Of a DNA stretch of 64,000 nt, positions 1,744 through 64,000 are shown piece by piece; the stretch's first letter is position 1; each line of letters begins with the position of its first letter. The notes under the pieces were generated by a model. That model saw nothing but the letters and a program-made list of their open reading frames with translations, had not been told where the DNA came from and ran no database searches. This stretch comes from Octopus vulgaris (Eukaryota): NCBI GenBank assembly GCA_951406725.2, contig OX597832.1:66650001-66714000 (forward strand), given 5' to 3'. The translations under genes were made by a program, and so were the position numbers.

Positions 1744-2672
1744 GAGGTCTTCTCCCGTCGGTTTCGTCAAATAAATGGACCTCAAGTTGTTCGATCAACT
1801 GAATGACGAACCCATTGTGCTAGAGGGTGAAAAGCTGATGCATTCGAATTTAATCTCTCTCACACACACGATCTCTCTCTTTCTCTCTTCGTCTTTCTTC
1901 CACTCCCTTTCTTTCTCTCTCGTTCACTATCACACTCTAAAACACTCTCACGCACAATTTTCTCACACACTTTCTTCATCCTTCCGTGTTTGTTTCTCTT
2001 TTTTCCCTCTCTTACTGTGGGTAACACACCCACATACACCCCTCATTATTTCAAAAGCCAAGATCTAAATCAGAATCTCTCTCTCTCTCTCTCTCTCTCT
2101 TCTTTTTCTTGCACGCATTCACTTCCCATACTCTTCTAAATCCGTCCCTCCAAATAGTTTTTGAATTTCACCTTCAGGCAGATCGAGGGTAGGCACTTGA
2201 CACATTCCATTATATCTTAGGCCGATCAACAGTCACCCGACAGTAAATCAAAATCTTTTAAATACTATCTATAATTACGTATTGACTCGAATGGAAAAAT
2301 GTGTCGCGTAAGAAGGACTTCAGTTTGAAGAATTTTCATGATATTTTAAATTCAGATGTTTTTATTCAATTCATTCTGTGAAACCAAAATAAATTTTAGA
2401 ATTAAATGGTTTTGATTTACTGCCAAGTGACATTTGACAGTGAATTTAATGAAATTAAATACTGATTGAATTGCATTTACCGAATTTTCAATGACCCGGC
2501 GGGTTACCCGCAATATCACTGAATATTTAATTAATTTTCTCTTTAACAGAAGAGAATTCTCGCCTGAGTATGAGGCTGACCACGAGATCCCACCATTGCA
2601 AATGTCAAATATGCTCGGAATGCAACTGGCGTTCATGTTAGAATGATAATATATATGTATATAAGTACACAA

Positions 2673-2739
<67 letters not shown>

Positions 2740-3005
2740 TGCATTCACAGATATAAATGCATACATACACACATACATACATATGTGTAAGTGCACGCAC
2801 ACTAACCCACACACATGCGCACAGGTAAACAACAAGAACGCAGCTCGGATAATGGACAATCAACGACCATTGAAAAGGTTACAAGACGCAAAGAAATTTG
2901 CAGAAAAATAAAGAAGTAAATTAGTAGAAACTGAACCGCTGAGTGTGTTAAATAGTAAGGCACTAAAAGAGAATGAATCGCCCCAGGCAGCAAAATATGC
3001 TTCAA

Positions 3006-3285
3006 CACGTGACCGACCAGGCTATCAGATGTTGCTACACATCGCTGGTCGCAATACGCTTCGCATTGCTTTAGCCTTCAAATGACGCCACCCCGCTGGC
3101 TAACCGAGCAGGAGAAAAGGAGAAAGAGTGAGAGAGAGTTGCGGTCGCCACCCCCCATGCCGTAGCCTCGTGGAGCTTTTAGGTGTTTTCGCTCTCTAAA
3201 CACTCACAACGCCCGGTCTCGGAATCGAAATCGTGATCCTACGACCGCGAGTCGGCTGCCCTAACCACTGGACCATTGCGCCTCC
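3006..3285 (-). mobile_element. tRNA-derived SINE
   Basis: Minus strand begins GGAGGCGCAATGGTCCAGTGGTTAGGGCAGCCGACTCGCGGTCGTAGGATCACGATTTCGATTCC (A-box, and B-box-like TTCGATTCC), followed by a GC-rich non-tRNA body. Confidence 0.8.
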
Positions 3286-3306
3286 ACACACACATATTTA
3301 TATATG

Positions 3307-3348
<42 letters not shown>

Positions 3349-3599
3349 AGTGTATATGGAAAAACTGTGTTATATGTGATACTATTAGAAATAGTGTCTA
3401 TGGAAATGACTTCAATGCTTATTCTTACGACAGCGTACATTCGATGTAATTTTCTGGAATACAAATACCTCGACAAATTTAATGACTCTTATCTTGTGAT
3501 ATTGATAAATATCTTCTACTTATATCAATTTTTATACAATTGTTTACCTAATTTCGTCATAAATAAAACCAATTCTTCTGAAATCTGAAATCTGAAAAA

Positions 3600-7849: not shown

Positions 7850-10800
7850 CAGGCAGAGTGGACCTTTCATAGGTTAAAAAAGAAATGAATAAATAAATAA
7901 AAAGAAGAAGGGAAAACTATGCCCGGAGATAAAACTATCAACAAAAAAAATACAGACGAATACAGATCTGCTAGCCATAAGAAGCTGCGCTACGAACAAC
8001 ATTTACGTGCAGAGAATCCTAAACTGACAGATCCGTCTCTTAATGTAAGAGTCGAAGCTCGTCATGCTTCAATGTCAACAAAACAACCCACAATCCGAAA
8101 AGGTCGGCGAGCGGACTACAAAAGACCACGTACCCGAAAATTGAACCAAAGTCTGATTGAAAAATCAGCTACTGGAGCAAATCTTCACGACACACAGGAG
8201 CTGGACGTACCCCGCAACTGGAATATTCCAACAGATGGCCATCCATGCTCGTCACCAAACACTCAAAAGAAAAAGAAGGAAAAATGGACTAGGGAAGATA
8301 ATAAAGAAGTTCTTGCGGCCTTCTACCATGCCATATATTTCCCCACAGATAAATCGAACACTATACAAACCTACATAAACTGGAGACAGAAACACCCTGA
8401 AGTAAGACCCTACATAGACAGTAACAAACTTGCCAACGTCAGAAGAAACATTATAAAAAAAAAATTACTGACTGAAGTAGAGATTGATCAAATTAGACAA
8501 GCAGTAACGGATAGAATGAACGAAGCTGCAGCTAGAGAAGATAATACAGAGGAAATAATTATAGACCAGCTCAGAGCTAATAAAAATGAAGTAAGGATTG
8601 AAAGAGTTACTATAAATGATAGGCAAAGTGAAATACTCCCTGAACCAATCATAAACACTAAGACAGATGAACATCAAATAGATGAAGAAAGTCACACAAA
8701 TATTGACCCGACAGAACTACATGAGTTAAAAAGTCAAATCATGATTGAATGGCTGAAAATTAAAGAAACCAGTATGGATGAACGTGATACACCCCCTAAA
8801 ATCCGCAACTCTAACCAAAACATGAAAATAATTGGTAAAACCCGGCTTGTACTTAAGGATATAATTTCAGCTAATGATGTTGATATCACAGATCTCAACC
8901 ACCTATACTATGCCTCCGCGAAAATCTCAACGATCCTATGTGGTGAAAAGATTAGAAAACGGCAAATTTCCACAAAAAGCCTTCTTGGCAAGAGCGTTTG
9001 CAACAACAAATTAAACTATTTGGATCTGAACATTGAATATTTGAAAAACCTTAAGGTTCATAAGACTACCAAACCTATAAAAACCCCAAAACTAATGAAA
9101 AAATATAATATGAAAACTATACTTGATATTGATGCCACCATAGAAACCATCAAGCAAAAGGTATCTGCTAAAGCTGCCCGCATAGCGAGGTATGAAAAGA
9201 ATGTTAGATTCTTCAGGGACAACAACATGTTCAAAAATAAACCAAAAAATTTTTACAAGAAGATAGGAAAAAAAACAGTTACTGTAAAGTCTGTACCATC
9301 AAAAGAAGAAGTGCAGGGATTTTGGAATAAAATTTGGGCAGAAGAAAAAAAACACAGCGAAAAGGCCCCCTGGATTGATAGAATATCTAAAGAACTGGAC
9401 TCCTTAGAAGAGCAAAAGTGGGAAGGTGTCAAGGTAGAAGATACAAGATCTGCTCTCAGGAGGTCAAGCAAATGGAAGTCTCCAGGAAAGGATAAAATAC
9501 CTAACTTTTGGTTGAATGCCTTCCAGAGAGCCATGAACTGCTAACATAACTTTACAATGATGTTTTGCAACACCCTAGTAGGATGCCTCCTTGGCTAGTT
9601 AATGGGTTAACATTCCTGCTTCCAAAAAGTGAAGATACAAATGAACCAAAAAACTATAGACCCATAACCTGCTTAACTACTATGTATAAAACACTAGGAA
9701 TATACCTATAGTTTTTTGACAGACAGCAGCATATTCCCTAATGAACAGAAAGGATGTAAACGTGGATCCTACGGTTGTAGAAATCAACAACTCATCAATA
9801 AGATTATCTTAGAAGATTGTCACAAACGACACAAAAACTTATCAATAGCTTTTGATAGCCTACCACATAGCTGGATTAAGAAATGCCTAGAAATGTATAA
9901 GATAGCACCTGCTCTGCGAAACTTTTTGTCTGTAAGTATGAGATCATGGAGAACCACACTAACTTTGAACAGTGACAATGAATCTCTAAATGCTGGTGAT
10001 GTAAACATTTCATGTGGCATTTTCCAGGGTGACTCACTATCACCACTCCTCTTCTGTTTAGCCTTAATACCTCTCTCAAAACTGCTCAATGACGCGTAGT
10101 ACGGATATAAAATGTTTGACAAAAATATAAATCATCTCTTTTACATGGATGATTTAAAGCTCTTTGCAAAAAATGACCAACAACTCAAGGGCTTACTAGC
10201 GATTGTCAAACAATTTAGTGATGACATCAGAATGCAATTTGGCCTCGATAAGTGTGCAAAAGCAATCTTTATCAAAGGAAAAAATGACAGAAACATCTAA
10301 CGTTAACCTTGACCAGCAGAATGTCATAAAAGAATTAGACCCAGCAGAGAACTACAAGTATCTAGGGGTAATTGAATGAGAAGGAATAAGGCATTCAGAG
10401 ATGAAGGAAAGGATCAGGAGAGAATGTTATCGCAGAGTAAGAGCAATACTCAAGACAGAGCTGAATGCAAGAAACAGGATCGAAGCGATCAATGCATTAG
10501 CTATACCAGTTGTGACTTACAGTTTCAATATCGTTAACTGGTCAATTACTGAAATATGTAATCTTGACAGAAAAATACGAAAACTGTTGACAATGCATAG
10601 AATGCACCACTCTAAGGCAGATACAGAACGACTTTATCTGCCAAGAAAAGAGGGAGGCCGTGGACTTTTACAACTGGCAATAACAATAAAGTTTACTACA
10701 ATTGGCCTAGACACCTACCTGAAAAGCTCTGAGGACTGGATGTTAAAACTTGTCTCAAAACATGAAAACAAGAAAGTATCATACTCAGTAACAAAACAGG

Positions 10801-11899
10801 CAAAGGAATATATAAGTGAATTCCGAATTCAACAAATTTCGGAATTAGAGATAGACATACAAGAAACAGGCACAGAAAAAGCTAAGCGCATGAAAACCCG
10901 TGCTAAATCTGCGGCCTTAGATATTCTGAATGATAAATGGCAAGAAAAACCTCTCTATGGCAAATACCCAAAAAAAGAGCAAATAATGCTGATATTGACA
11001 AAGCCCACACCCATCAATGGCTAATGGCCTCTGGCTTAAAATCTGAAACAGAGGGGTTTATCATAGCAGCTCAAGATCAATGCCTACCAACAAGAAACTA
11101 CCAGCCAACATATTAAAGATCAGAAGCAGTCCAACGTATCGTGTATGCCAGCAACAAAATGAAACCATTGACCACGTGGTCTCCAAGTGCAGTCTTCTAG
11201 TGCCTTCAGAGTATCTCAACAGACACAATAGAGCTGCACAATCTATTCACTGGGTAATCTGCAAAAACCTGGATTTGCACCATGAAAAAACTGGTGGGAA
11301 TACAAACCACCCCCAGTGCTTGAAAATGACCACATCTCACTCCTCTGGAACTTCACCATTCAAACTGACAGAAAGATAGATGCAAATAGACCAGACATCA
11401 TATTGAAAGACTTCAAACAAAGAACATGCCTCCTCATTGATATGACTGTCCCAATCGATATAAACGTATCTGTCAAGACCTACCAAAAACTGAGCAAATA
11501 TAAAGATCTTGAAATAGAAATCAGCAAAATGTGGAAGCTGAAGACTAAAACAATACCTGTTGTCATAGGTGCCCTGGGAATGATAGCAAAAGGGGCTGAT
11601 AGCTACCTAACTCAGATACCAGGAAACCCCCAAATGGCAGAAATTCAAAAGATAGTGCTCATGGGAACTGCTCATATCCTACGCAAAATACTTTCTATGT
11701 TTAAAACAAACATAATTTTCGGTTTTTAAAAAAATTTTTTTTTCTTAGACATTCATTAGTACAACACCAAAAACTCCCCCCCCCCCAATATATGGCACAC
11801 TAGGCATAACAACAACATGAACTTCCTACCTGTTGTCTCTTAAGGTCTCTGGGTGAGACTTGGAGCCAACTTGTACAAATATAAAGCAAGTCAAACATA

Positions 11900-11900
<1 letters not shown>
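7850..11900 (+). mobile_element. Near full-length, inactivated R4/Dong-clade non-LTR retrotransposon (RT + CCHC + restriction-like endonuclease)
   Basis: N-terminal KWTREDNKEV motif; KWKSPGKDKIPNFWL; NYRPITCL; EQKGCKRGSYGC; AFDSLPHSWI; GIFQGDSLSPLLFCLALIPLS; HLFYMDDLKLFAK; RLYLPRKEGGRGL; (C>Y)RVC...ETIDHVVSKC...RHN; RPDIILKD...LIDMTVP...KLSKYKDL. The single ORF is broken into pieces 7919-9544, 9716-10099, 10112-10300, 10401-11024, 11080-11379 and 11316-11729. The 3' end abuts (AAT)n at 11901; the 5' boundary is uncertain. Confidence 0.93.
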
Positions 11901-11941
<41 letters not shown>

Positions 11942-11978
11942 TAATAATACCACCACCATCACCAACATCACAACCACC

Positions 11979-12009
<31 letters not shown>

Positions 12010-12011
12010 GC

Positions 12012-12085
<74 letters not shown>

Positions 12086-12135
12086 TAATAATAATAATAA
12101 TAATGCTAATAATAATAATAATAATGATAATAATA
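11901..12135. repeat. (AAT)n tract with (ACC)n/(AAC)n interruption at the 3' junction of the Dong-like element
   Basis: Seen directly. Confidence 0.97.
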
Positions 12136-12289
12136 TTGAGACATGATTTTATTTGAAGAAAGGATTGCTAAAAAGAGAAGGGCGGCTAAAAGGAGAAGGA
12201 CGACTAGAAAGCGAAAGATAGTTAAAAGTAGCAGCACGACAATATGTATTGAAGATAAAATGTATAAAAGCAAAGGTAGACAATAATTA

Positions 12290-13050
12290 GCTAGATTCCC
12301 AATGTGAATTAAATTTCTTCCAGCTTTGGATTTCCTGGTATACGAGAGAGATAACATTCAGCCACTTTTGCTATTATTCCTACGCTACCTATGTCAATAG
12401 GTATTCTTTTAGCCTTCGGGTTCCACATTTTGCCAACTTGTCTTTCGAGGTCCTTATATTTGCTGAGTTTTTCGTAAGTCTTGGCACATTTATTTATGTT
12501 GATTGGGACAATCATATCGATGAGGAGACATGGTTTTTCTCTGAAGTCCTTTAATATAATGTTTGGCAAATTTGCATCTAGCTTTCTGTCAGTTTGAACA
12601 GTAAAGTTCCAAAGAATTGAGATGTGATCATTTTCAAGCATCCGTTTTTATCCTATATACTGTTCCACTCTAACATACCCGTTGAGATACTCAGTTGCAA
12701 GGACAAAATACAACCGATGTTTCAGTTTTCTGGCTGTTTACTCATACAATAAGTTGGGCTTTTGCCGTTCTTTAAGATGTTGGCCTCGTATCTCCTTGTA
12801 GGAAGGCATTAATCCTTAGTTGCTATGATAAACCCTTGAGTCTCTGATTTTATGCAAGAAGATACTAACTATTGATGGGTAAGAACTTTTGTCAAAATCA
12901 GCATTATTAACTCTCCTTCGGTATTTGCCATAGAGAGGTTTTTCTTGCCATTTATCAGTAAGAATATTTAAGGCAGTAGTTGCTACTTATTTTGTTGCTG
13001 AGTGTACAGCTCTCTTGTTTTGATGCTTTCTGAAAAGATTTAGCACGATG
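12290..13050 (-). mobile_element. Older, internally deleted inverted copy of the same R4/Dong family (3' part)
   Basis: ORF 12309..12641 (LENDHISILWNFTVQTDRKLDANLPNIILKDF...KLSKYKDLE) aligns to 11316..11729; upstream DKWQEKPLYGKY homology near 12920-12960. Confidence 0.92.
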
Positions 13051-13104
13051 TAGCACGTCTAAGTTCTTACTCATTTATTTATTTATTTATTTAATATTAC
13101 TATT

Positions 13105-13364
13105 CTATGTTTGACTTTTGCTTTATGTCTGTACAAGCTGGCTCCAAGTCTCACCCAGAGACCTCAAGAGACAACAGGTTGGAAGTTCACGTTGTTGTTA
13201 TGCCTAGTGTGCCATATATTTGTTTTGGTGTTGTACTAATAAAAAAATTTTTTTTAAAGAATTTGTTTTAAACCTTGTTTTAAACATAGAGAGTATTTTG
13301 CGTAGGATATGAGCAGTTCCCATGAGCACTATCTTTTGAATTTCTGCCATTTTGGGGATTCCTG
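13105..13364 (-). mobile_element. Severely 5'-truncated (~260 bp) copy of the same Dong-like element including the 3' UTR
   Basis: Reverse complement matches 11620-11900 (CAGGAATCCCCAAAATGGCAGAAATTC ... GTCAAACATAG); bordered by (ATT)n at 13372-13452. Confidence 0.93.
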
Positions 13365-13369
13365 TTATA

Positions 13370-26499: not shown

Positions 26500-28440
26500 T
26501 CAAAGCAGGAAAGGAAGAGGACAGATAGAGTGCATTGATGGTGCTATTTTATGCTGATATTTCATCGATGATTGATGTTTGAGCACGGTAGTTTTGAAAG
26601 ATGAAAATTTAGCATATGAATAGCATCAAACCTGAATCAATCTATCTAATACTAATTTATGCTTAGTTCATCTCACCTCTTATTATTCCCTGATATAATT
26701 TTCTCTTTTTCTGTTTATTACCAGCGGAATATAGCTTCGTTGTGAGTATAAAAGCGTTTTCTTTAATGTTAACAGCTGCAGGTCTGACATTAACTTTATC
26801 ATGCAATTATGCATCGTGAAGACATAGAAAGGGAGCTGGAAATGCATCTAACAGGCATATTAACCTTAAGTTGGTTGTTGCAGATTATCAATAATTTTAT
26901 GATCAGTGAATGTTCTGAACATGTGAACTTTAGAACGGGGGATACTTTTTTATAAATGTGATGCACGGAACTGCAAGAGGCGGCCAGCTATTTAGACGGT
27001 CATCAATACAATTTGTTAAGGATCTCCTGTTTGTGACACAAAAGAATACATTTTATTTGAAAGCTAATAAATACACATCCGTATGTAAATTATTTGATTA
27101 TGTATCTTAAGATTTTTTTATGATCAACATGTGACGTAATGTTGATTTCTATCTTCCACGCTTCCACATAATATGTTACGTTCGAACTATCTTCTAGAAG
27201 TGTGCATGTAACATGAAGGTGACCATTAGATGATTACATGATTACAATTTGTACTAAAATGTTAACAGCAAAAAATACTGGACTAATGTTAGAACCTCAG
27301 CTGCTCTGCATAATCTGCTATATGTAGCATCTATATCTATATTATAGCATATGCAACATACAAATAATGTGGATTCATAAGCACCAGACGATGTAATTTT
27401 ATATGCTGTACATCCAAAAATAACTGGATGACCATAGTCAGTACATAATCTACAACACTAAATAAATTTAGCCAAATTTGAGTTGAACGAAATCAAAGTG
27501 AATTTTGAAGAAGTTAAGGATACCTTGCACTCATAAAATTAATTTCATTAAAGTTTATAAACAGGAAGATACTTGCAAGATCGTAGATTAATTAATGCTA
27601 TTTTCTTAGTATATGAATTGTGAGAAAAATAAGTTATAATACACTTGAGTTGATAAATTTCAAAATGTATTCGTAAATTATTAAATTTAAAATATGTTTA
27701 ATTACAAAGTAAATGAGGAAGTTGTATTTGTCTATCATGTTTCTCCCGATCAATACTTTTTTGTTTACAGATGCGATGCTGGGAACTGCAAGAGGCGTCC
27801 AGCTATGTAGACAGCCATAAATACAATTTGTTAAGGATTTCCTATTAGTGGCACAAAAGAAAACTTTTATTTAAGAGGTATTAAATACACATCGATATGT
27901 AAATTACATAATTATTTATCGTATGATTTTTTGATAAACATCTGACGAAATGTTGATTTCCAACTATCATACATCTAAATAATACGTTGCATCCGAACTA
28001 TCTTCTTCTAGAAGCGTTCATATAATATGAAGGTGTGCATTAGATGATTACATGACAATTTGTACTAAAATGATAATTGCATACATGTCCGATTGGTGCA
28101 TGTAAGACCCAATCAAAGACAGGATGTCGTTCAGTTCAATCGATATGAATAATGAATAATATAAATGTTAGTTTTCAAAATCGGAGTATGCTTGTCATAT
28201 TTACTACTTCATGTCCTATTTTTAATGTTGTAGATTCAGTATCTTTACGCTTTTGATTAGACAATTCTTTGATCAAGATTGTCATTAACGTACAGGAGAA
28301 ATAGGCGTCTGATGTAATATTCAGTCGCGCTGTATTCGGATACTCTGCAATGTATGATATTGTGATATCAACAAAAGTAATTTCAATAAAGTTCATAATG
28401 AATGTATAATAAGATCTTTTATAACAGTACATCTTTCCAC
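26500..28440 (-). pseudogene. Possible decayed protocadherin-like sequence
   Basis: Microsatellite-free stretch. Minus-strand fragments in plausible cadherin order: LLYVNDNLDQR, KYDKHTPILKTNIY (DxNDNxPxF..xY-like), NYHFST, KSIDREKHD, DYGHPV. Many stops. Confidence 0.3.
26956..28072. repeat. Diverged ~305-bp direct repeat pair (26956-27261 and 27771-28072)
   Basis: Colinear shared blocks: GGAACTGCAAGAGGCG, AATACAATTTGTTAAGGAT, AAATACACATC, AATGTTGATTTC, CGAACTATCTTCT, CATTAGATGATTACATGA, ACAATTTGTACTAAAATG. Confidence 0.9.
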
Positions 28441-29399: not shown

Positions 29400-29720
29400 A
29401 TCTGTAGATAGGAGTAGATAATGTAAATTGAGAAATTATTTCTATCAATAATATTTCTGAACTAGATTTTGATACTTTAAGCAAAAGCACTTCTAACCTT
29501 GATGAAACAGTTAAGATAAGACCTAGTTTTAATAACCGCAATACTAATAAAAATCGGGACTTCACACTTGCTGCTGAGAGGGAGATTTGCTCCAATACTT
29601 TTAACAATAACTACCACTTACAATTAAATAAGCGCTTTTGCAATTTTAATACCACAAACCGTGAACTCTATTGATTTGGAACAATCCAAATTATTTTATA
29701 GGTCCTCGCAATATAAGGTC
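29400..29720 (+). pseudogene. Possible leucine-rich-repeat gene remnant
   Basis: Open frame IISINNISELDFDTLSK...PSFNN...EICSNTFNNNYHLQL resembles LSxNxIxxL / IxxNTF LRR segments. Confidence 0.3.
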
Positions 29721-29945
29721 CTCGCAATCTATTTTCCTCGCTTACGACCTTGTGTAGTAGAGTAATAATCTAAATGGTTTCAAGACTATTTGGGGTCTAC
29801 TTCTAGCACACTAGTGTTGTAATCATTCAACACACTTATGATTTTAATATTAATTAAAATATAACTTAACTATTATCGTATTTTAGTATGCTGTCCAATC
29901 ATAAATCATTAAATAATGACTTTATCCTAATTACGTAAATTACAT

Positions 29946-30016
<71 letters not shown>

Positions 30017-30117
30017 GGAGTAAACAAATAAATGTGAAACAAGGTGGAAAAAGAGTACTCAAATACCAGTGGTAGAGTAATATGCTTTATTTTAAGCAGC
30101 AGAAAATTCAACAAGAT

Positions 30118-30155
30118 CTGTTACTCTGAGTTTCTCGTTGCCGTTCATCAGACAG
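30118..30155 (-). ncRNA. Minimal type I hammerhead ribozyme motif (PLE1 left arm)
   Basis: Minus strand CTGT-CTGATGA-ACGGCAACGA-GAAA-CTCAGAG-TA-ACAG: stem I CTGT/ACAG, core CUGAUGA/GAAA, near-palindromic stem III, GUA cleavage triplet. Confidence 0.8.
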
Positions 30156-31151
30156 TTTTTGCTAGAATGGAACTTATATATTAATTCAATCTATACTCTT
30201 ACAAACGCTACACCTTTAAAAAGAAATGGACTTGTTTGATTGGCCCTTTAGAAAAAACGGTCAATCTTCGAGCGATAAACAAAAAGGTCAAAAATATATG
30301 TATATATATATAAAAAAACTTATAAAAATTATAAAACTTATAAAATCCGAGGAAAAAACCGAGGAAAAAACCTATTGCCGTTAATGAAGACAGTACAAAT
30401 TAATGCATAGAAATTAAACCTGTTATAAATACTGCAATACATATTTATATTAAAATCCACATATATATATCAACATACACAAAAGGATGCGCGTAAACGC
30501 CATACATACATATACAGACGTATGAATATGAATCTAAATTATACACATAAAAGCATGTGTACATATATTCACGCAAACCGTCTCGCACGCAAGCTAAAAT
30601 TCATCTATGTAGCAATTCTCATATACTGAGCAAGGAGGGGGAACGAAAGAAAGGGAAAGAGAGAAAAAGGAACGAAGGAGGGGTGGGGAAAAACTTGTAG
30701 CGATATTATTGGCATCTATAGAGGCCAGTATACATACACAAGTTTGAATTGATACATATACATACCGTCGTGTGTATGCGTGCTTAAGCACAAGCATACT
30801 TTCACTTACACATACACAGATACGCATGCTTACAAATACATATGCTTTGCTATACACATACTTATATAAACATTCTAATTTTGACAACATTGCTTTTAAA
30901 AAATGGGTGCATTATTAAAAATATATACGAAAGACATATAAAATAAAATATAACATCCTATTTTGGGTCATTTATAAATAATCAAGGTAATATAAATAAT
31001 CAAGGTAATCCTATTCAATACAATAACATGAAAACAAAGTTTGTAGGTTTTTCCTAATATATATGTAGAAACAATAAGACTTTGCTATAGATCCGTCGTA
31101 GCGCTCAAGATTCAAAATCAAAATCAAAAATCAAAATACAAAATATATACT

Positions 31152-31466
31152 CTATCCATATGGTATATTTATATTCGACATTTTAAATTTAGCCGCGTGC
31201 CTACATAAGTTCATTAACTCACTTCTTTGATTCAAAGAATTATTGTCTTTGAATAATATGTGCATTTTCTCTAATAAGCAAAGCCTGCACTTGAAATTAT
31301 ATTTGTAAGCTCCATGCCTGTATGGTGCCGCCCTGTCCAGAATGCTCCATGTCACGTTGAAAGGTGGGGCTTCCTTTTCTTTTAGTTCCCAGACATATTT
31401 TGCTAGGCTGATTTTCTTCCTATTCTCTGGGTATTTAAAAGAATTCTTATGAGAATAAAATCTCAT
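31152..31466 (-). pseudogene. C-terminal fragment of a PLE GIY-YIG endonuclease (Naiad-like motif pattern)
   Basis: RFYSHKNSF...LAKYVWELK...VTWSIL..A.PY...CRLCLLEKMHIL...LNQRSELMNLCRH. The frame is open up to the inversion junction. Clade assignment is from recollection of motifs. Confidence 0.8.
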
Positions 31467-32515
31467 AAAATGTCGAATATAAATATACCATATGGATAGA
31501 GTATATATTTTGTATTTTGATTTTTGATTTTGATTTTGAATCTTGAGCGCTACGACGGATCTATAGCAAAGTCTTATTGTTTCTACATATATATTAGGAA
31601 AAACCTACAAACTTCGTTTTCATGTTATTGTATTGCATAGGATTACCTTGATTATTTATATTACCTTGATTATTTATAAATGACCCAAAATAGGATGTTA
31701 TATTTTATTTTATATGTCTTTCGTATATATTTTTAATAATGCACCCATTTTTAAAAGCAATGTTTTTCTTTAAAAAAAGCAATGTTGTCAAAATTAGAAT
31801 GTTTATATAAGTATGTGTATAGCAAAGCATATGTATTTGTAAGCATGCGTATCTGTGTGTGTGTAAGTGAAAGTATGCTTGTGCTTAAGCACGCATACAC
31901 ACGATGGTATGTATATGTATCAATTCAAACTTGTGTATGTATACTGGCCTCTATAGATGCCAATAATATCGCTACAAGTTTTCCCCACCCCTCCTTCGTT
32001 CCTTTTTCTCTCTTTCCCTTTCTTTCGTTCCCCCTCCTTGCTCAGTATATGAGAATTGCTACATAGATGAATTTTAGCTTGCGTGCGAGACGGTTTGCGT
32101 GAATATATGTACACATGCTTTTATGTGTATAATTTAGATTCATATTCATACGTCTGTATATGTATGTATGGCGTTTACGCGCATCCTTTTGTGTATGTTG
32201 ATATATATATGTGGATTTTAATATAAATATGTATTGCAGTATTTATAACAGGTTTAATTTCTATGCATTAATTTGTACTGTCTTCATTAACGGCAATAGG
32301 TTTTTTCCTCGGTTTTTTCCTCGGATTTTATAAGTTTTATAATTTTTATAAGTTTTTTTATATATATATACATATATTTTTGACCTTTTTGTTTATCGCT
32401 CGAAGATTGACCGTTTTTTCTAAAGGGCCAATCAAACAAGTCCATTTCTTTTTAAAGGTGTAGCGTTTGTAAGAGTATAGATTGAATTAATATATAAGTT
32501 CCATTCTAGCAAAAA

Positions 32516-32553
32516 CTGTCTGATGAACGGCAACGAGAAACTCAGAGTAACAG
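32516..32553 (+). ncRNA. Minimal type I hammerhead ribozyme motif (PLE1 right arm)
   Basis: CTGTCTGATGAACGGCAACGAGAAACTCAGAGTAACAG, identical to the left-arm copy. Confidence 0.8.
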
Positions 32554-32590
32554 ATTTTGTTGAATTTTCTGCTGCTTAAAATAAAGTATA

Positions 32591-32668
<78 letters not shown>

Positions 32669-32676
32669 ATTTACGT

Positions 32677-32734
32677 AAAGAATTATTAACTTCCCATTCT
32701 CTATTTTCATTTTCTTCTTTTAGAGATGTTTGTA

Positions 32735-32778
<44 letters not shown>

Positions 32779-32841
32779 ATGCATACAAACATCTCTAAAA
32801 GAAGAAAATGAAAATAGAGAATGGGAAGTTAATAATTCTTT
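32677..32841. repeat. Perfect palindrome: ~62-bp unique arms around a (TA)n centre
   Basis: AAAGAATTATTAACTTCCCATTCTCTATTTTCATTTTCTTCTTTTAGAGATGTTTGTATGC and its exact reverse complement. Confidence 0.97.
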
Positions 32842-32868
32842 ATTATTAACAACAAATTAATCATCAAA

Positions 32869-32931
<63 letters not shown>

Positions 32932-33639
32932 TACACATTTATAGAGGATATTGTGATAGGAATAAGCAAAAGGTAAGCAAAAAACAAGGTGCATTTTAAT
33001 TGTGGTCGGAAGAGTCAAATGTGTATCTACAGTGCATCAGAAGTCTCTATACAGCATCTCAGCTGCATGGTACCAGTGTATGGTGGGTCGAAACAATCGT
33101 TGCTGTTAGGAATAGAGAATCCCATTAATTCCAATTTCTCTCCTTCACATCTTTTATATATATATGTATGTGTGCATATCTTTCTAGCATTTTTTCCCTT
33201 TTAATTTGTCTCAGTCATTTGACTAGAGTCGTATATGTATATATGTGTATGTGTGTGTGTGTTTGTATACATATACGTATATATGTATCTCTCTCCCTAT
33301 TTCTCATTCTCCTACATTCTATCTTCTGCCCACAGGTGACCAGTGTCTAATTTTCTCAGCTATTTTCGCAACGAGATTCTCTTCCACTGATATTTTTCTT
33401 TCAATTTCCATTAATGATTTTCCCATAACTCCTGTGTTTGGGTGTGTTAATTCTCTCTTCGTCTATCGTTTTCAGTAAAATTACATTTGTCTACTTTCGC
33501 ACGTCCCCCGCGTACCGTTTTTCTTACTCGATCCCTAATTCTCCGCAAACCTTTCGGGTGTCGCAGATATACGAAGTTCGAAAGCCATTGTTAGTATTTT
33601 GGCCCTACGTGCGTTTTGTAGTATTTATTGCATTTTCAG

Positions 33640-33711
<72 letters not shown>

Positions 33712-49730: not shown

Positions 49731-50762
49731 TCAGGTCATCTCATTAGCCCTGCTTGGATTTAGAATAAAGAAAACAAGTGTTAAAATATTATATTTAATT
49801 CAAATTGAATCATCAATGTATTTTCCCTAATTATCTATGACTTCCTTTTGGCTTGCGGAAGTTTCATCAAAATGATTCTGTAAACTACGAAACAAATGGC
49901 AGTCTGAAGGAGCAAAGTCGGGAGAATAAGGTGGATGAAGAATTTTTTCCAACGAAGCTCTTCGATCTTCTGTGATGTGATTCTTGCAGTATGAGGTCAC
50001 GCATTGTCCTGATGAAACATAATCCCTTTTCGATTCACTAAAGCGGGTCTTTTTCCTTCAAAACTTGGTTCAAACGCTCTAATTGCTGACAGTAGACTTG
50101 AGCACTGATTATTACATAAGGTGGTAATAATTCAAAGTTAATTACTCCTTTGCAATCCCACCAGTTACAGAGAAGTACCTTTTTCCCATGAAGTTCCCTT
50201 CTCAGTTCTGGTCGAGCTTTTCCCCTTGTACCAAGCCACTGTTTACGACGTTTAATATTTCGATAGAAGATCCATTTTTCGTCAACGGTCACAAGTTGTT
50301 GGTTTGAACTAAGATTTATTGCCAATTCTTCAACTGATAATGCAGGATTTTCTTCAAGTTATGATTCAAGGAGCTAATCATCAAATTCAACTGGATGTCC
50401 TGTTCGATCTTCATCTTCAAGGCTGAATATCTCCATTTCTGAATTTTGCAAACCATCTTCTGCAAGCATTCTTTCCTATAAATTGAGTGTATGTTTGGAG
50501 TCGCTTCGGCTACAGAGTTTCCTCATAAAGCATTGTGTGCCTCAAATCCCCTTTGAATACTTCCATGTTAGAAATGGTTTTAATCAAAGAAATTTTAATT
50601 CTATTATTCTGTAATTCTATTTAATTCTATTATTTAATTAGTTTAAATGTACACAAATGCATAGACATAATTTTTAATTCCACTACACATTCTAAAACAC
50701 TATTAAATTTCATTCAATTTTTAAAAAACGTAAAATCGGACAGAACTTATGGGATGACCTGA
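49731..50762 (-). mobile_element. Mariner element with both TIRs and TA target duplication; transposase defective and partly deleted
   Basis: TA|TCAGGTCATCTCATTAGCCCTG ... CAGAACTTATGGGATGACCTGA|TA. Minus strand VTVDEKWIFY...KKVLLCNWWDCKGVI, HQDNA*PHTA, HPPYSPDFAPSDCHLFRSLQN. Confidence 0.93.
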
Positions 50763-57410: not shown

Positions 57411-57509
<99 letters not shown>

Positions 57510-57633
57510 TAAAAGTAATTCCAACCTTGTCTGATTTTCACGTTTTATTTACAATCTTATAATGATATAATATAATATAATATAATATAATATAATAAAA
57601 TAAAATAATAGAATGTTAAACGTTCATTCTGAT

Positions 57634-57678
57634 TGAACTAGTACTTTCATGCATTAAATTCTGCAATCTTCAGGTTCA
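57634..57678 (-). ncRNA. Type I hammerhead ribozyme motif (PLE2 left arm)
   Basis: TGAAC-CTGAAGA-TTGCAGAATTTAATGCAT-GAAA-GTAC-TA-GTTCA: stem I TGAAC/GTTCA, stem II TGCA/TGCA, palindromic stem III. Confidence 0.8.
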
Positions 57679-58109
57679 TATAGTAGTAGTGACAGTCATG
57701 CTTCACAATTTTTGACTGTAGCGAGATGATTGAATCTGTGCTTTAAATACAGCTGTGTAGGCTCCAGATGCTAGGTTTTGCAAACTGTATTCTGACCAAT
57801 CAGTGTGTAGTATCACTCAATTACTTAAGCTGATTGGTTGGTTGAGCTGATTGGTTGGTTGAGCTAATTGGTTTAGGCGTCACGCTTTGTTGGACATGTC
57901 AGACGTCCTGTATCTTGACCCTGGCCGAAGCAGCAATTGTTGGGCTATTTTTAGAAATGGTGTAAATAGCCTTTGTCAGAGATTTTTATATTTTTATATT
58001 TCAATTTTTCATCATCATCATTGTCAGCACCTTAATTATTGTTGCTAGTGATGGCAATATAACTTTTAACCCTAAATAAGATATATTTCCTGCTATCTAA
58101 GTATTATTA

Positions 58110-59214
58110 TTATTGCTTATTTAGCTTGGGTTCCAATTTATCAATAACATTCTTTTCTCTGATTTTCCTCTCGATTTCACTTGGGCTGTGTAATTTGTAG
58201 AATGGAAATATTATATATATATTCCGGCCACATGTTTCTAGGTGGTTACTCAAAGGTATCTCACGGACCTCTGGGTCTCTAATATGTTGTCGGTGTACAC
58301 GTGAACGTTCTGGTAGTGCGTTTCCCGTCTGACATAATATATATTTCTTCACAATTCGGGCATTTTGATGCAGTAACTTAAATTTCTGCTTTTGCAGTTC
58401 ATATTCGCGTTTGTGAATATTTTCCCGGTTTTTGTGTTTATATATTGGCCGGTATGTATGAATTGGCATGTGCCACATCGGCTATCATTGCATTTAGATA
58501 CAGTGAATGTTTGGTCTTTGTTGCTAAGGTCAAATTTTGCCTTTGTTAGTAATTTTTGCAAGCTTTTAGGCTGTCTTTTACTAAGCACCATAGCTCGATC
58601 CGTGATTATGTCTTTTAATTCATTATTTTGGGCAATGATTGGTAGGTTTGCTTTGGTTGAAGATATTCTAGTGACATGGGTTGTGTGTCATTATGAATGG
58701 TATGACTTGATGTTGTTTCCTTTTTCTTGGGTTGTCCTACGTTGTTGTATGGGTATTTTTAGAGCCCGCTGTATGCCATTTTCTATAAGTAGAGATGGGT
58801 ATTTTTGTTTGAGCAGAACTTCTCTTGGTTTTATTAGGCGTTTGTTCCTGATATTTGCATCTTCTATAATGGTACAAATTCTTCTGGCTAGGCAGTATGG
58901 GATGTTGCGTTTTGTATGTGGTGGATGGCACGACTTAAAATTTAGGTATTGATGTGTGTCTGTGTGTTTATAGAATATATCTGTGGTGATGGTGGTGTCT
59001 TTTTTAATTACCATTATATCTAGGAATGGTAATTTGGTACTACTCATCCCCTTTGTAAATTGGAGAGAAGGGTGTAGGTTGTTCAGGAGGATATTGAAAT
59101 CTTCCAGAGTATTTAGAGATTCTGTCCAGATTATGAAGCAGTCGTCAAGGTATCTCTTCCATGCCTTTTCAATATACTTACTATATCCAGTGTCATAGTT
59201 TACCTCCACCTCTT
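58110..59214 (-). pseudogene. PLE RT C-terminus/thumb, Cys linker and GIY-YIG endonuclease (frameshifted)
   Basis: WKRYLDDCFIIW; LPFLDIMV; TDIFYKHTDTHQYLNFKSCHPPHTKRNIPY; KCNDSRCGTC; MNCKSRNL.YCIKCPNC; ERSRVHR; REKNVIDKLEPKLN. Confidence 0.92.
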
Positions 59215-59530
59215 GGAAAATATTCACAAACGCGAATATGAACTGCAAAAGCAGAAATTTAATTTACTGCATCAAATGCCCGAATTGTGAAGAAATATAT
59301 GTAGGTCAGACGGGAAACGCACTATCAGAACGTTCACGTGTACACCGACGACAGATTAGAGACCCAGAGGTCTGTGAGATACATTTAAGTAACCACCTAG
59401 CAACATGTGGCCGGAAAATTTAAATAATATTCCCATTCTAAAAATTACACAGCCCAAGTGAAATCGAGAGGAAAATCAGAGAAAATAATTTTATTGATAA
59501 ATTGGAACCCAAGCTAAATAAGCAATAATA
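59215..59530 (+). pseudogene. Inverted second copy of the GIY-YIG domain
   Basis: MNCKSRNLIYCIKCPNCEEIYVGQTGNALSERSRVHR; premature stops. Confidence 0.9.
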
Positions 59531-59749
59531 ATAAAACTTAGATAGCAGGAAATATATCTTATTTAGGTTTAAAAGTTATATTGCCATCACTAGCAACAAT
59601 AATTAAGGTGCTGACAATGATGATGATGACAATTGAAATATAAAATATAAAAATCTCTGACAAAGGCTATTTACAACATTTCGAAAAATAGCCCAACAAT
59701 TGCTGCTTCGGCCAGGGTCAAGATACAGGACTCTTGACATGTCCAACAA

Positions 59750-59910
59750 ATCGTGACGCCTAAACCAATCAGCTCAACCAACCAATCAGCTTAAGTAATT
59801 GAGTGATACTACACACTGATTGGTCAAAATACAGTTTGCAAAACCTAGCATCTGGAGCCTACACAGCTGTATTTAAAGCACATATTCAATCATCTCGCTA
59901 CAGTCAAAAA
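59750..59910 (+). promoter_or_regulatory. Putative pseudo-LTR Pol II promoter (mirror copy at ~57710-57885, minus strand)
   Basis: GTGACG, two tandem CCAATCAGC boxes plus a reversed CTGATTGG, then TATTTAAA (~59870) and an Inr-like TACAGTC ~30 nt downstream, just before the hammerhead. Confidence 0.45.
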
Positions 59911-59940
59911 TTGTGAAGCATGACTGTCACCACTACTACA

Positions 59941-59985
59941 TGAACCTGAAGATTGCAGAATTTAATGCATGAAAGTTCTAGTTCA
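59941..59985 (+). ncRNA. Hammerhead motif (PLE2 right arm), stem III palindrome mutated GTAC>GTTC
   Basis: TGAACCTGAAGATTGCAGAATTTAATGCATGAAAGTTCTAGTTCA. Confidence 0.7.
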
Positions 59986-60136
59986 ATCAGAATGAACATT
60001 TAACATTCTATTATTTTATTTTATTATATTATATTATATTATGTTATCTTATATCATTATAAAAGTGTAAATAAAACGTGAAAATCAATGTTGGAATTCC
60101 TTTTATTAATATATTCTTCTATACACAATCACACCC

Positions 60137-63526: not shown

Positions 63527-64000
63527 ATATATATAATTTTTTGAAAGGGTAATAAAAATCTACGAATATATACTAAATACACAGGCGAACAGAAAACACA
63601 GAAAGACACCAACTTCTCTTTAGTTACCGGCCAGAGGTTCAAATCACAGTTTCGGTCATTATCGATAATATTCCTTCCACTCTGGCGGCACCGGTAAGAA
63701 GCATGCCGCGAATGGGACCAAAACATACCAAGACGAGACGGGTACGAGACGAGACCGACCGTTAGAAAAATGACGGAGGACAAAACAATAAACAAGATAA
63801 AGAAAAGAAAATGGGCATTAGAAAGTTAATAATTGTTTATACTTAACAGCAAATTGATCATCGTCACTTACAACCGTTTAAATTAACGCTCAAGAAACAT
63901 TAAATTTACATTAATGTGCTGGTATGTGATGATGATCGATTTATTATTAATTATAAACAATCATTAACTTTCTAATGGCCATTTTCTTTTCTTGTTATGT

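Follow-up and report, generated by a model that had tools for sequence, protein, structure and literature searches.

A probable two-sided snap-back repair scar at a (TA)n microsatellite containing a Penelope-like element in Octopus vulgaris

The window, a stretch of 64,000 nt from Octopus vulgaris (GCA_951406725.2, contig OX597832.1, 66,650,001-66,714,000 of the forward strand; all coordinates below are those of the window), contains a Penelope-like element (PLE) in a (TA)n microsatellite, both flanks of which are present a second time in inverted orientation. The whole locus reads L-(TA)n-[PLE]-(TA)n-rc(L14)-rc(R62)-(TA)n-R, where L and R are the left and right flanks and rc(L14) and rc(R62) are inverted copies of 14 and 62 nt of them. 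On balance, this layout is probably a double fold-back duplication at the microsatellite that arose by host break repair, with the PLE centred in the left palindrome and probably inserted later; it is likely to be a scar of ordinary DNA repair where a TA repeat is fragile, and not the footprint of element insertion. Read in this way, the locus shows cleanly, in a natural setting, snap-back repair on both sides of a TA microsatellite.

The left flank (29644-29937, + strand) forms the end of an older dispersed repeat, possibly a PLE-like end, with relatives at 64 places in the genome (73-85% identity, query positions 45-338) that often have an inverted partner. The template of the first inverted copy, L14, is the sequence TTACGTAAATTACA at 29931-29944 (+ strand), and it is repeated as its exact reverse complement, rc(L14), at 32665-32678 (− strand); both copies adjoin (TA)n, as the earlier note had observed. 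Extended by TATATA to a 20-mer, it has two occurrences in the 2.8-Gb genome, both of them at this locus, and a control pattern is not found at all; a common repeat end is thereby ruled out as the nature of the 14-mer. The composition-based chance of 13 matched bases at a fixed register is about 9e-8, and 2 of 5,934 shuffled flank pairs reached the threshold. The tail-side TA tract (29945-30014) has one T>A interruption, at 29959, which is mirrored by the one A>T interruption, at 32594, of the tail-less-side tract (32587-32664). Because the interruption is mirrored here and single interruptions are rare in other copies of the element (4 of 245 tracts on the tail side and 1 of 166 on the tail-less side), the mirror likely extends into the TA tracts. 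The end that the earlier note placed on the inverted flank, 32678, is correct for the 14-nt mirror but incomplete, since an inverted copy of the right flank directly continues it.

This second copy, rc(R62), was overlooked at that time, and the copied flanks are both sides of the TA repeat. It is located at 32676-32737 (− strand) and is a 62-nt, 100% identical inverted copy of the first 62 nt of the right flank (R62, 32781-32842), from which it is separated by a third TA tract (32738-32780), the centre of the right-hand palindrome. The inverted copies of the two flanks overlap by, and are joined through, a 3-nt TAA microhomology (32676-32678). The right flank R (32781-32866, + strand) consists of 16 nt of local sequence followed by a fragment of another old dispersed repeat. 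Relatives of R in the genome (77-93% identity) follow the sequence of 32781-32866 and in no case lead into the 14-mer; judged by these repeat relatives, R appears to be ancestral and rc(R62) to have been copied locally and recently. Because rc(R62) takes in local bases outside the repeat and matches R at 100%, compared with 77-93% for the relatives of R, it reads as a recent local copy and not as a new repeat insertion, and the site before the event was likely L-(TA)n-R. Other origins of the copies were considered and ruled out: the R repeat family does not naturally continue into the copy of the 14-mer, as the relatives of R miss the first 15 query bases, and rc(R62) is not the native inverted arm of an older PLE, as the ends point inward, local bases are included and the identity is 100%. 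Elsewhere in the window, an old palindrome with 78% identity at 63800-63993 is related to the right-flank repeat at 32802-32865.

Its motifs and alignments identify the element as a 5'-truncated Hydra-clade PLE in the usual layout of its family, a tailed arm with a tail-less inverted arm. The main arm (30015-31463, − strand) corresponds to unit positions 1891-3362 of a full 3,362-nt unit from locus L132, to which it is 94% identical, and covers the 66-nt tail (30015-30080) as well as the C-terminal portion of the GIY-YIG frame (31152-31604). The tail-less arm (31466-32591, + strand) aligns with unit positions 2169-3296 and differs from the main arm by 6 substitutions and 5 gaps over 1,128 columns; overall, the arms of the window are 94-96% identical to the L132 unit. 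The statement in the earlier note that the right arm lacks the tail of the element is correct, but the missing length is 66 nt (unit position 3296 versus 3362), not 70. The L132 unit has YRDD at the reverse transcriptase (RT) and GVVY..YTG downstream of it, a C-terminal GIY-YIG arrangement. RWK and DKT motifs are present and DKG is absent, the linker is CxCX5C instead of CX2-5CxxC, and the nuclease has CxxC and CxH; RWK, DKT, CxCX5C, CxxC and CxH are features of the Hydra clade according to passages of PMC8557442. Pfam gave no match for the GIY-YIG fragment of the window, and Rfam found no hammerhead in 29400-33200, where the palindrome gave sub-threshold miRNA-type matches only.

The family is young and abundant: relatives with 99-100% identity were found at at least 41 places (40 of 1,589 candidates scored), and the genome contains at least 4,551 exact tail-(TA)4 junctions, a pattern that itself demands TA, so that the count is not a measure of the share of copies inserted in TA, together with 1,679 junctions of the tail-less end with TA. 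Insertions were surveyed in two sets, set 1 consisting of 140 10-kb regions from contig C1 and set 2 being taken from other contigs. TA is also present on the far side in 105 of 143 insertions in set 1. The inverted 5'-truncated layout with a tail at one end only, as seen in the window, recurs in the family: 77 of 124 insertions selected by the tail alone (set 2) have an inverted arm, and an arm ending at about 3296 is found in 92 of 143 insertions in set 1, of which 41 of the 140 regions had been selected by that end. This one-tailed layout is known for PLEs from passages of PMC8557442 and PMC3846280, and the elements described there also share the C-terminal GIY-YIG, RWK, DKT, CxCX5C and (TA)n targeting with the octopus element. 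Their tails are 30-40 nt, whereas that of the octopus element is 66 nt, and their target duplications, where present, are short target-site duplications (TSDs), with inverted flank copies unmentioned in these passages; more generally, no description of inverted flank copies at PLE insertions was found in the passages of the literature covered. Mini-insertions of about 235 nt, with both arms beginning at about 3209-3211, occur at many loci (for example L064, L084, L095 and L113), and this truncation point recurs in dozens of copies. Loci L137 and L138 (G000:C1 67.40-67.48 Mb) contain the same insertion and flanks on opposite strands, about 60 kb apart, and are probably a large inverted duplication.

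A mechanism for the repair reading can be proposed from the self-complementarity of (TA)n, by which a 3' end within the tract could fold back and prime on its own strand. Following a break in the tract, both ends would snap back, copying 14 and 62 nt, and annealing of the extended ends at TAA would generate the exact layout minus the PLE, with one junction; the PLE would then have landed in the centre of the left palindrome, an order of events that we infer. In agreement with these steps, rc(L14) and rc(R62) each begin at self-complementary (TA)n and meet at the TAA microhomology, which at 3 nt is weak by itself in AT-rich DNA. The symmetric copying of both flanks with a single microhomology junction supports the repair reading, as does the similarly low frequency of such copies, described below, where the PLE family is present and where it is absent. 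According to passages of PMC5728401, the inserts of snap-back synthesis-dependent repair of the SD-MMEJ type are inverted repeats of the flank, with TA and AT among the frequent primers. The octopus locus resembles these polymerase theta insertions in having an inverted flank copy, a self-complementary primer and a short microhomology join, but differs in that both ends have apparently snapped back, the (TA)n primer is long, one copy is 62 nt and the event is a germline scar deduced from the sequence of one assembly. The length of the longer copy is a point against the repair reading, as it exceeds the reach given for SD-MMEJ in the passages of that paper (structures up to 30 bp from the break); so are the low rates and limited power of the survey, the frequency of TA-centred fold-backs near insertions in set 1 and the copies beside the family at L112, L167 and L239. 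Passages of PMC13645644 describe TA repeats as forming cruciforms, being cut and undergoing polymerase theta-mediated MMEJ, which resembles the present case in that (TA)n is a cruciform-prone break site with microhomology repair; that work concerns ecDNA in cancer, and its passages do not describe two-sided inverted flank copies.

The earlier note had read the inverted copy as an inverted target duplication and had named an enrichment of inverted flank matches at such insertions as its test. In an anchored test that counted inverted flank copies anchored at the junction and containing 10 or more non-simple bases, a single one of the 142 other insertions in set 1 (L112; 95% upper bound for 1/142, 3.9%) was positive, compared with 3 of 691 TA tracts without the family, and in set 2 the figures were 0 of 124 insertions and 0 of 173 control tracts. 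Pooled, this is 1 of 266 other insertions versus 3 of 864 TA tracts without the family (Fisher p = 1.0), where the control tracts are free of this PLE family only, many adjoin other PLE-like ends, and some of the control matches (L055, L146) may be paired repeats and not fold-backs. Enrichment is therefore not seen, which is an outcome that the note itself had named as refuting, the limited power of the comparison being compatible with an enrichment of a few fold. A relaxed test, which required the first complex 13-mer beside the junction to recur in inverted orientation within 800 nt of the other flank, gave 5 of 267 versus 8 of 484 (p = 0.78), and 6 of 3,969 in shuffled pairs; it uses the same loci as the strict test and hence is not independent of it. 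Real rates exceed those of shuffled pairs in both tests. At TA tracts in general, inverted flank copies are more frequent than by chance, and there is no detectable excess at the PLE family. Excluded from these counts were the rows L138 and L086 (duplicates or overlaps), L192 and L225 (overlap with set 1) and the second L067 cluster, together with insertions too near the locus end (25 of 149 clusters in set 2).

TA-centred fold-backs within 400 nt of an insertion numbered 3 of 282 in set 1, 2 of the 3 coming from one locus, versus 1 of 1,220 far away, an excess with p = 0.023 when the window is counted and 0.09 when it is left out; in set 2 there were 0 of 206 near insertions. Clear inverted flank copies beside the family are present at L112 (about 170 nt), at the second insertion of L167 (about 38 nt) and at L239 (22-24 nt), and fold-backs at TA tracts without the family were observed directly at L146, L180 and L055. 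General fold-backs in the 250-nt flanks of insertions and controls lay outside the test; the long ones mostly resemble other inverted repeat elements. The second inverted PLE of the window (57507-60108), a member of a different family with arms 92% alike and fragments of RT and GIY-YIG, has no inverted flank copy. At the tail junction of L062 (2380-2508), 10-nt flank copies, some direct and some inverted, follow one another between TA tracts, and L066 has a small fold-back directly at the tail junction (2450-2508). Direct flank duplications of 232, about 22 and 40 nt are present at L067, L131 and L167 (2508-5993), respectively, with TSD-like junctions at which the far end of the copies is not against (TA)n; long direct duplications occur with a LINE according to passages of PMC9977147.

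The coupled insertion and repair models predict the same sequence; the lack of enrichment alone opposes a single event coupled to PLE insertion, which is regarded as possible but not probable. Here the PLE GIY-YIG nuclease would have cut both strands in (TA)n, and the inverted copies would be a rare by-product rather than a regular signature of integration: cDNA would be primed at the tail at the left end, whereas the right end would snap back for 62 nt, jump at TAA to the left flank, copy 14 nt and TA, and prime the tail-less arm. One continuous bottom-strand path does read R, (TA)n, R62, L14, (TA)n and cDNA, and both features are young, R62 being 100% identical to its copy and the element 99% identical to relatives. 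Flank copies are also found beside the family at L112, L167, L239 and L062, and passages of PMC11167929 report that a PLE, when purified, cleaves both strands, extends them and begins reverse transcription at two sites, which bound the tail. Breaks made by L1 yield inversions and inverted duplications at target sites (passages of PMC11702581), a similar association of retroelement insertion with local inverted duplication from the processing of broken ends; the link with the element is experimental in that case, whereas the octopus family shows no detectable excess over element-free TA tracts. Compared with the symmetric model, the coupled event also places more steps on a single end. A broader form of it, and a more doubtful one, would combine the coupled cut, fold-back and jump with such copies at about 1% of insertions, the "empty" fold-backs at TA tracts being scars of abortive PLE cuts. 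If this were true, PLE nucleases would be a main source of local inverted duplications in animal genomes rich in TA, and the two PLE ends would be primed from a real double-strand break with a free, long-lived second end. A coupled reading that held genome-wide would bear on how PLEs resolve integration and form the inverted one-tailed layout, and the octopus genome, with its thousands of young copies, is a good place for testing it.

That an inverted target duplication is a regular product of PLE integration chemistry is highly improbable: although the 14-mer copy adjoins the TA tract of the element exactly, such a copy is absent in 265 of 266 other insertions in the anchored test, those with the same layout included. 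Neither recurrence (1/266) nor, at low power, enrichment (p = 1.0; relaxed, p = 0.78) is found, and as a regular feature the duplication proposed in the earlier note is refuted. As a clue to the use of (TA)n by GIY-YIG nucleases, the inverted copy is weak because there is no enrichment over TA tracts without the family, and the tail-less inverted arm is a known PLE layout. The self-complementarity of (TA)n, on which both of the alternatives offered at that time rely, does fit; of these, insertion into an existing TA-centred palindrome is favoured and a switch of synthesis onto the left flank less so; what does not fit is regular target duplication by the PLE (1/266 versus 3/864). It is scarcely credible that the 14-mer is a chance match in AT-rich DNA beside an unrelated TA-centred palindrome; it is AT-rich and contains an 8-nt self-palindrome, but its two genome occurrences are both here, the probability at a fixed register is about 9e-8, the tract interruptions are mirrored and the relatives of R never run on into it. 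An artefact of assembly or library, from fold-back reads at TA tracts, is unlikely on structural grounds. Palindromes and long TA tracts are difficult to assemble, as is generally known and as passages of PMC8557442 note for PLE assemblies, but a fold-back within a read should give a mirror of the neighbouring PLE arm and not of 14 nt located at a distance of 2.7 kb, there is a microhomology where the two copies meet, the tract lengths are unequal between the sides, similar fold-backs elsewhere (L112, L146) have arm mismatches and so are old, and the contig is chromosome-scale. The junction at 32660-32740 is known from the assembly alone: of 24 public runs, 4 contain at least half of the words of 32666-33640, and in contigs of all 4 compared with 29500-32715, with repeats skipped, 32632-32715, where about 50 bases are unique, is uncovered; these contigs show no empty allele. 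At the left flank (29500-29780), 3 of these 4 runs have another haplotype with a 16-nt gap and a few substitutions, and one public run has a contig identical to the window over 29500-29927.

Inverted flank copies beside Penelope-like elements need a TA-tract control before they are read as target duplications. Other repeats and element fragments are present in the same window. At 7901-13368, a broken non-LTR retroelement (RVT_1 fragment) is followed by an inverted, about 80% identical copy of its 3' part across (AAT)n. A fragment of a Mariner-type transposase is found at 50038-50358 (PF01359, E = 6e-21), and 26946-27265 and 27760-28076 form a direct repeat with 81% identity over 324 nt.
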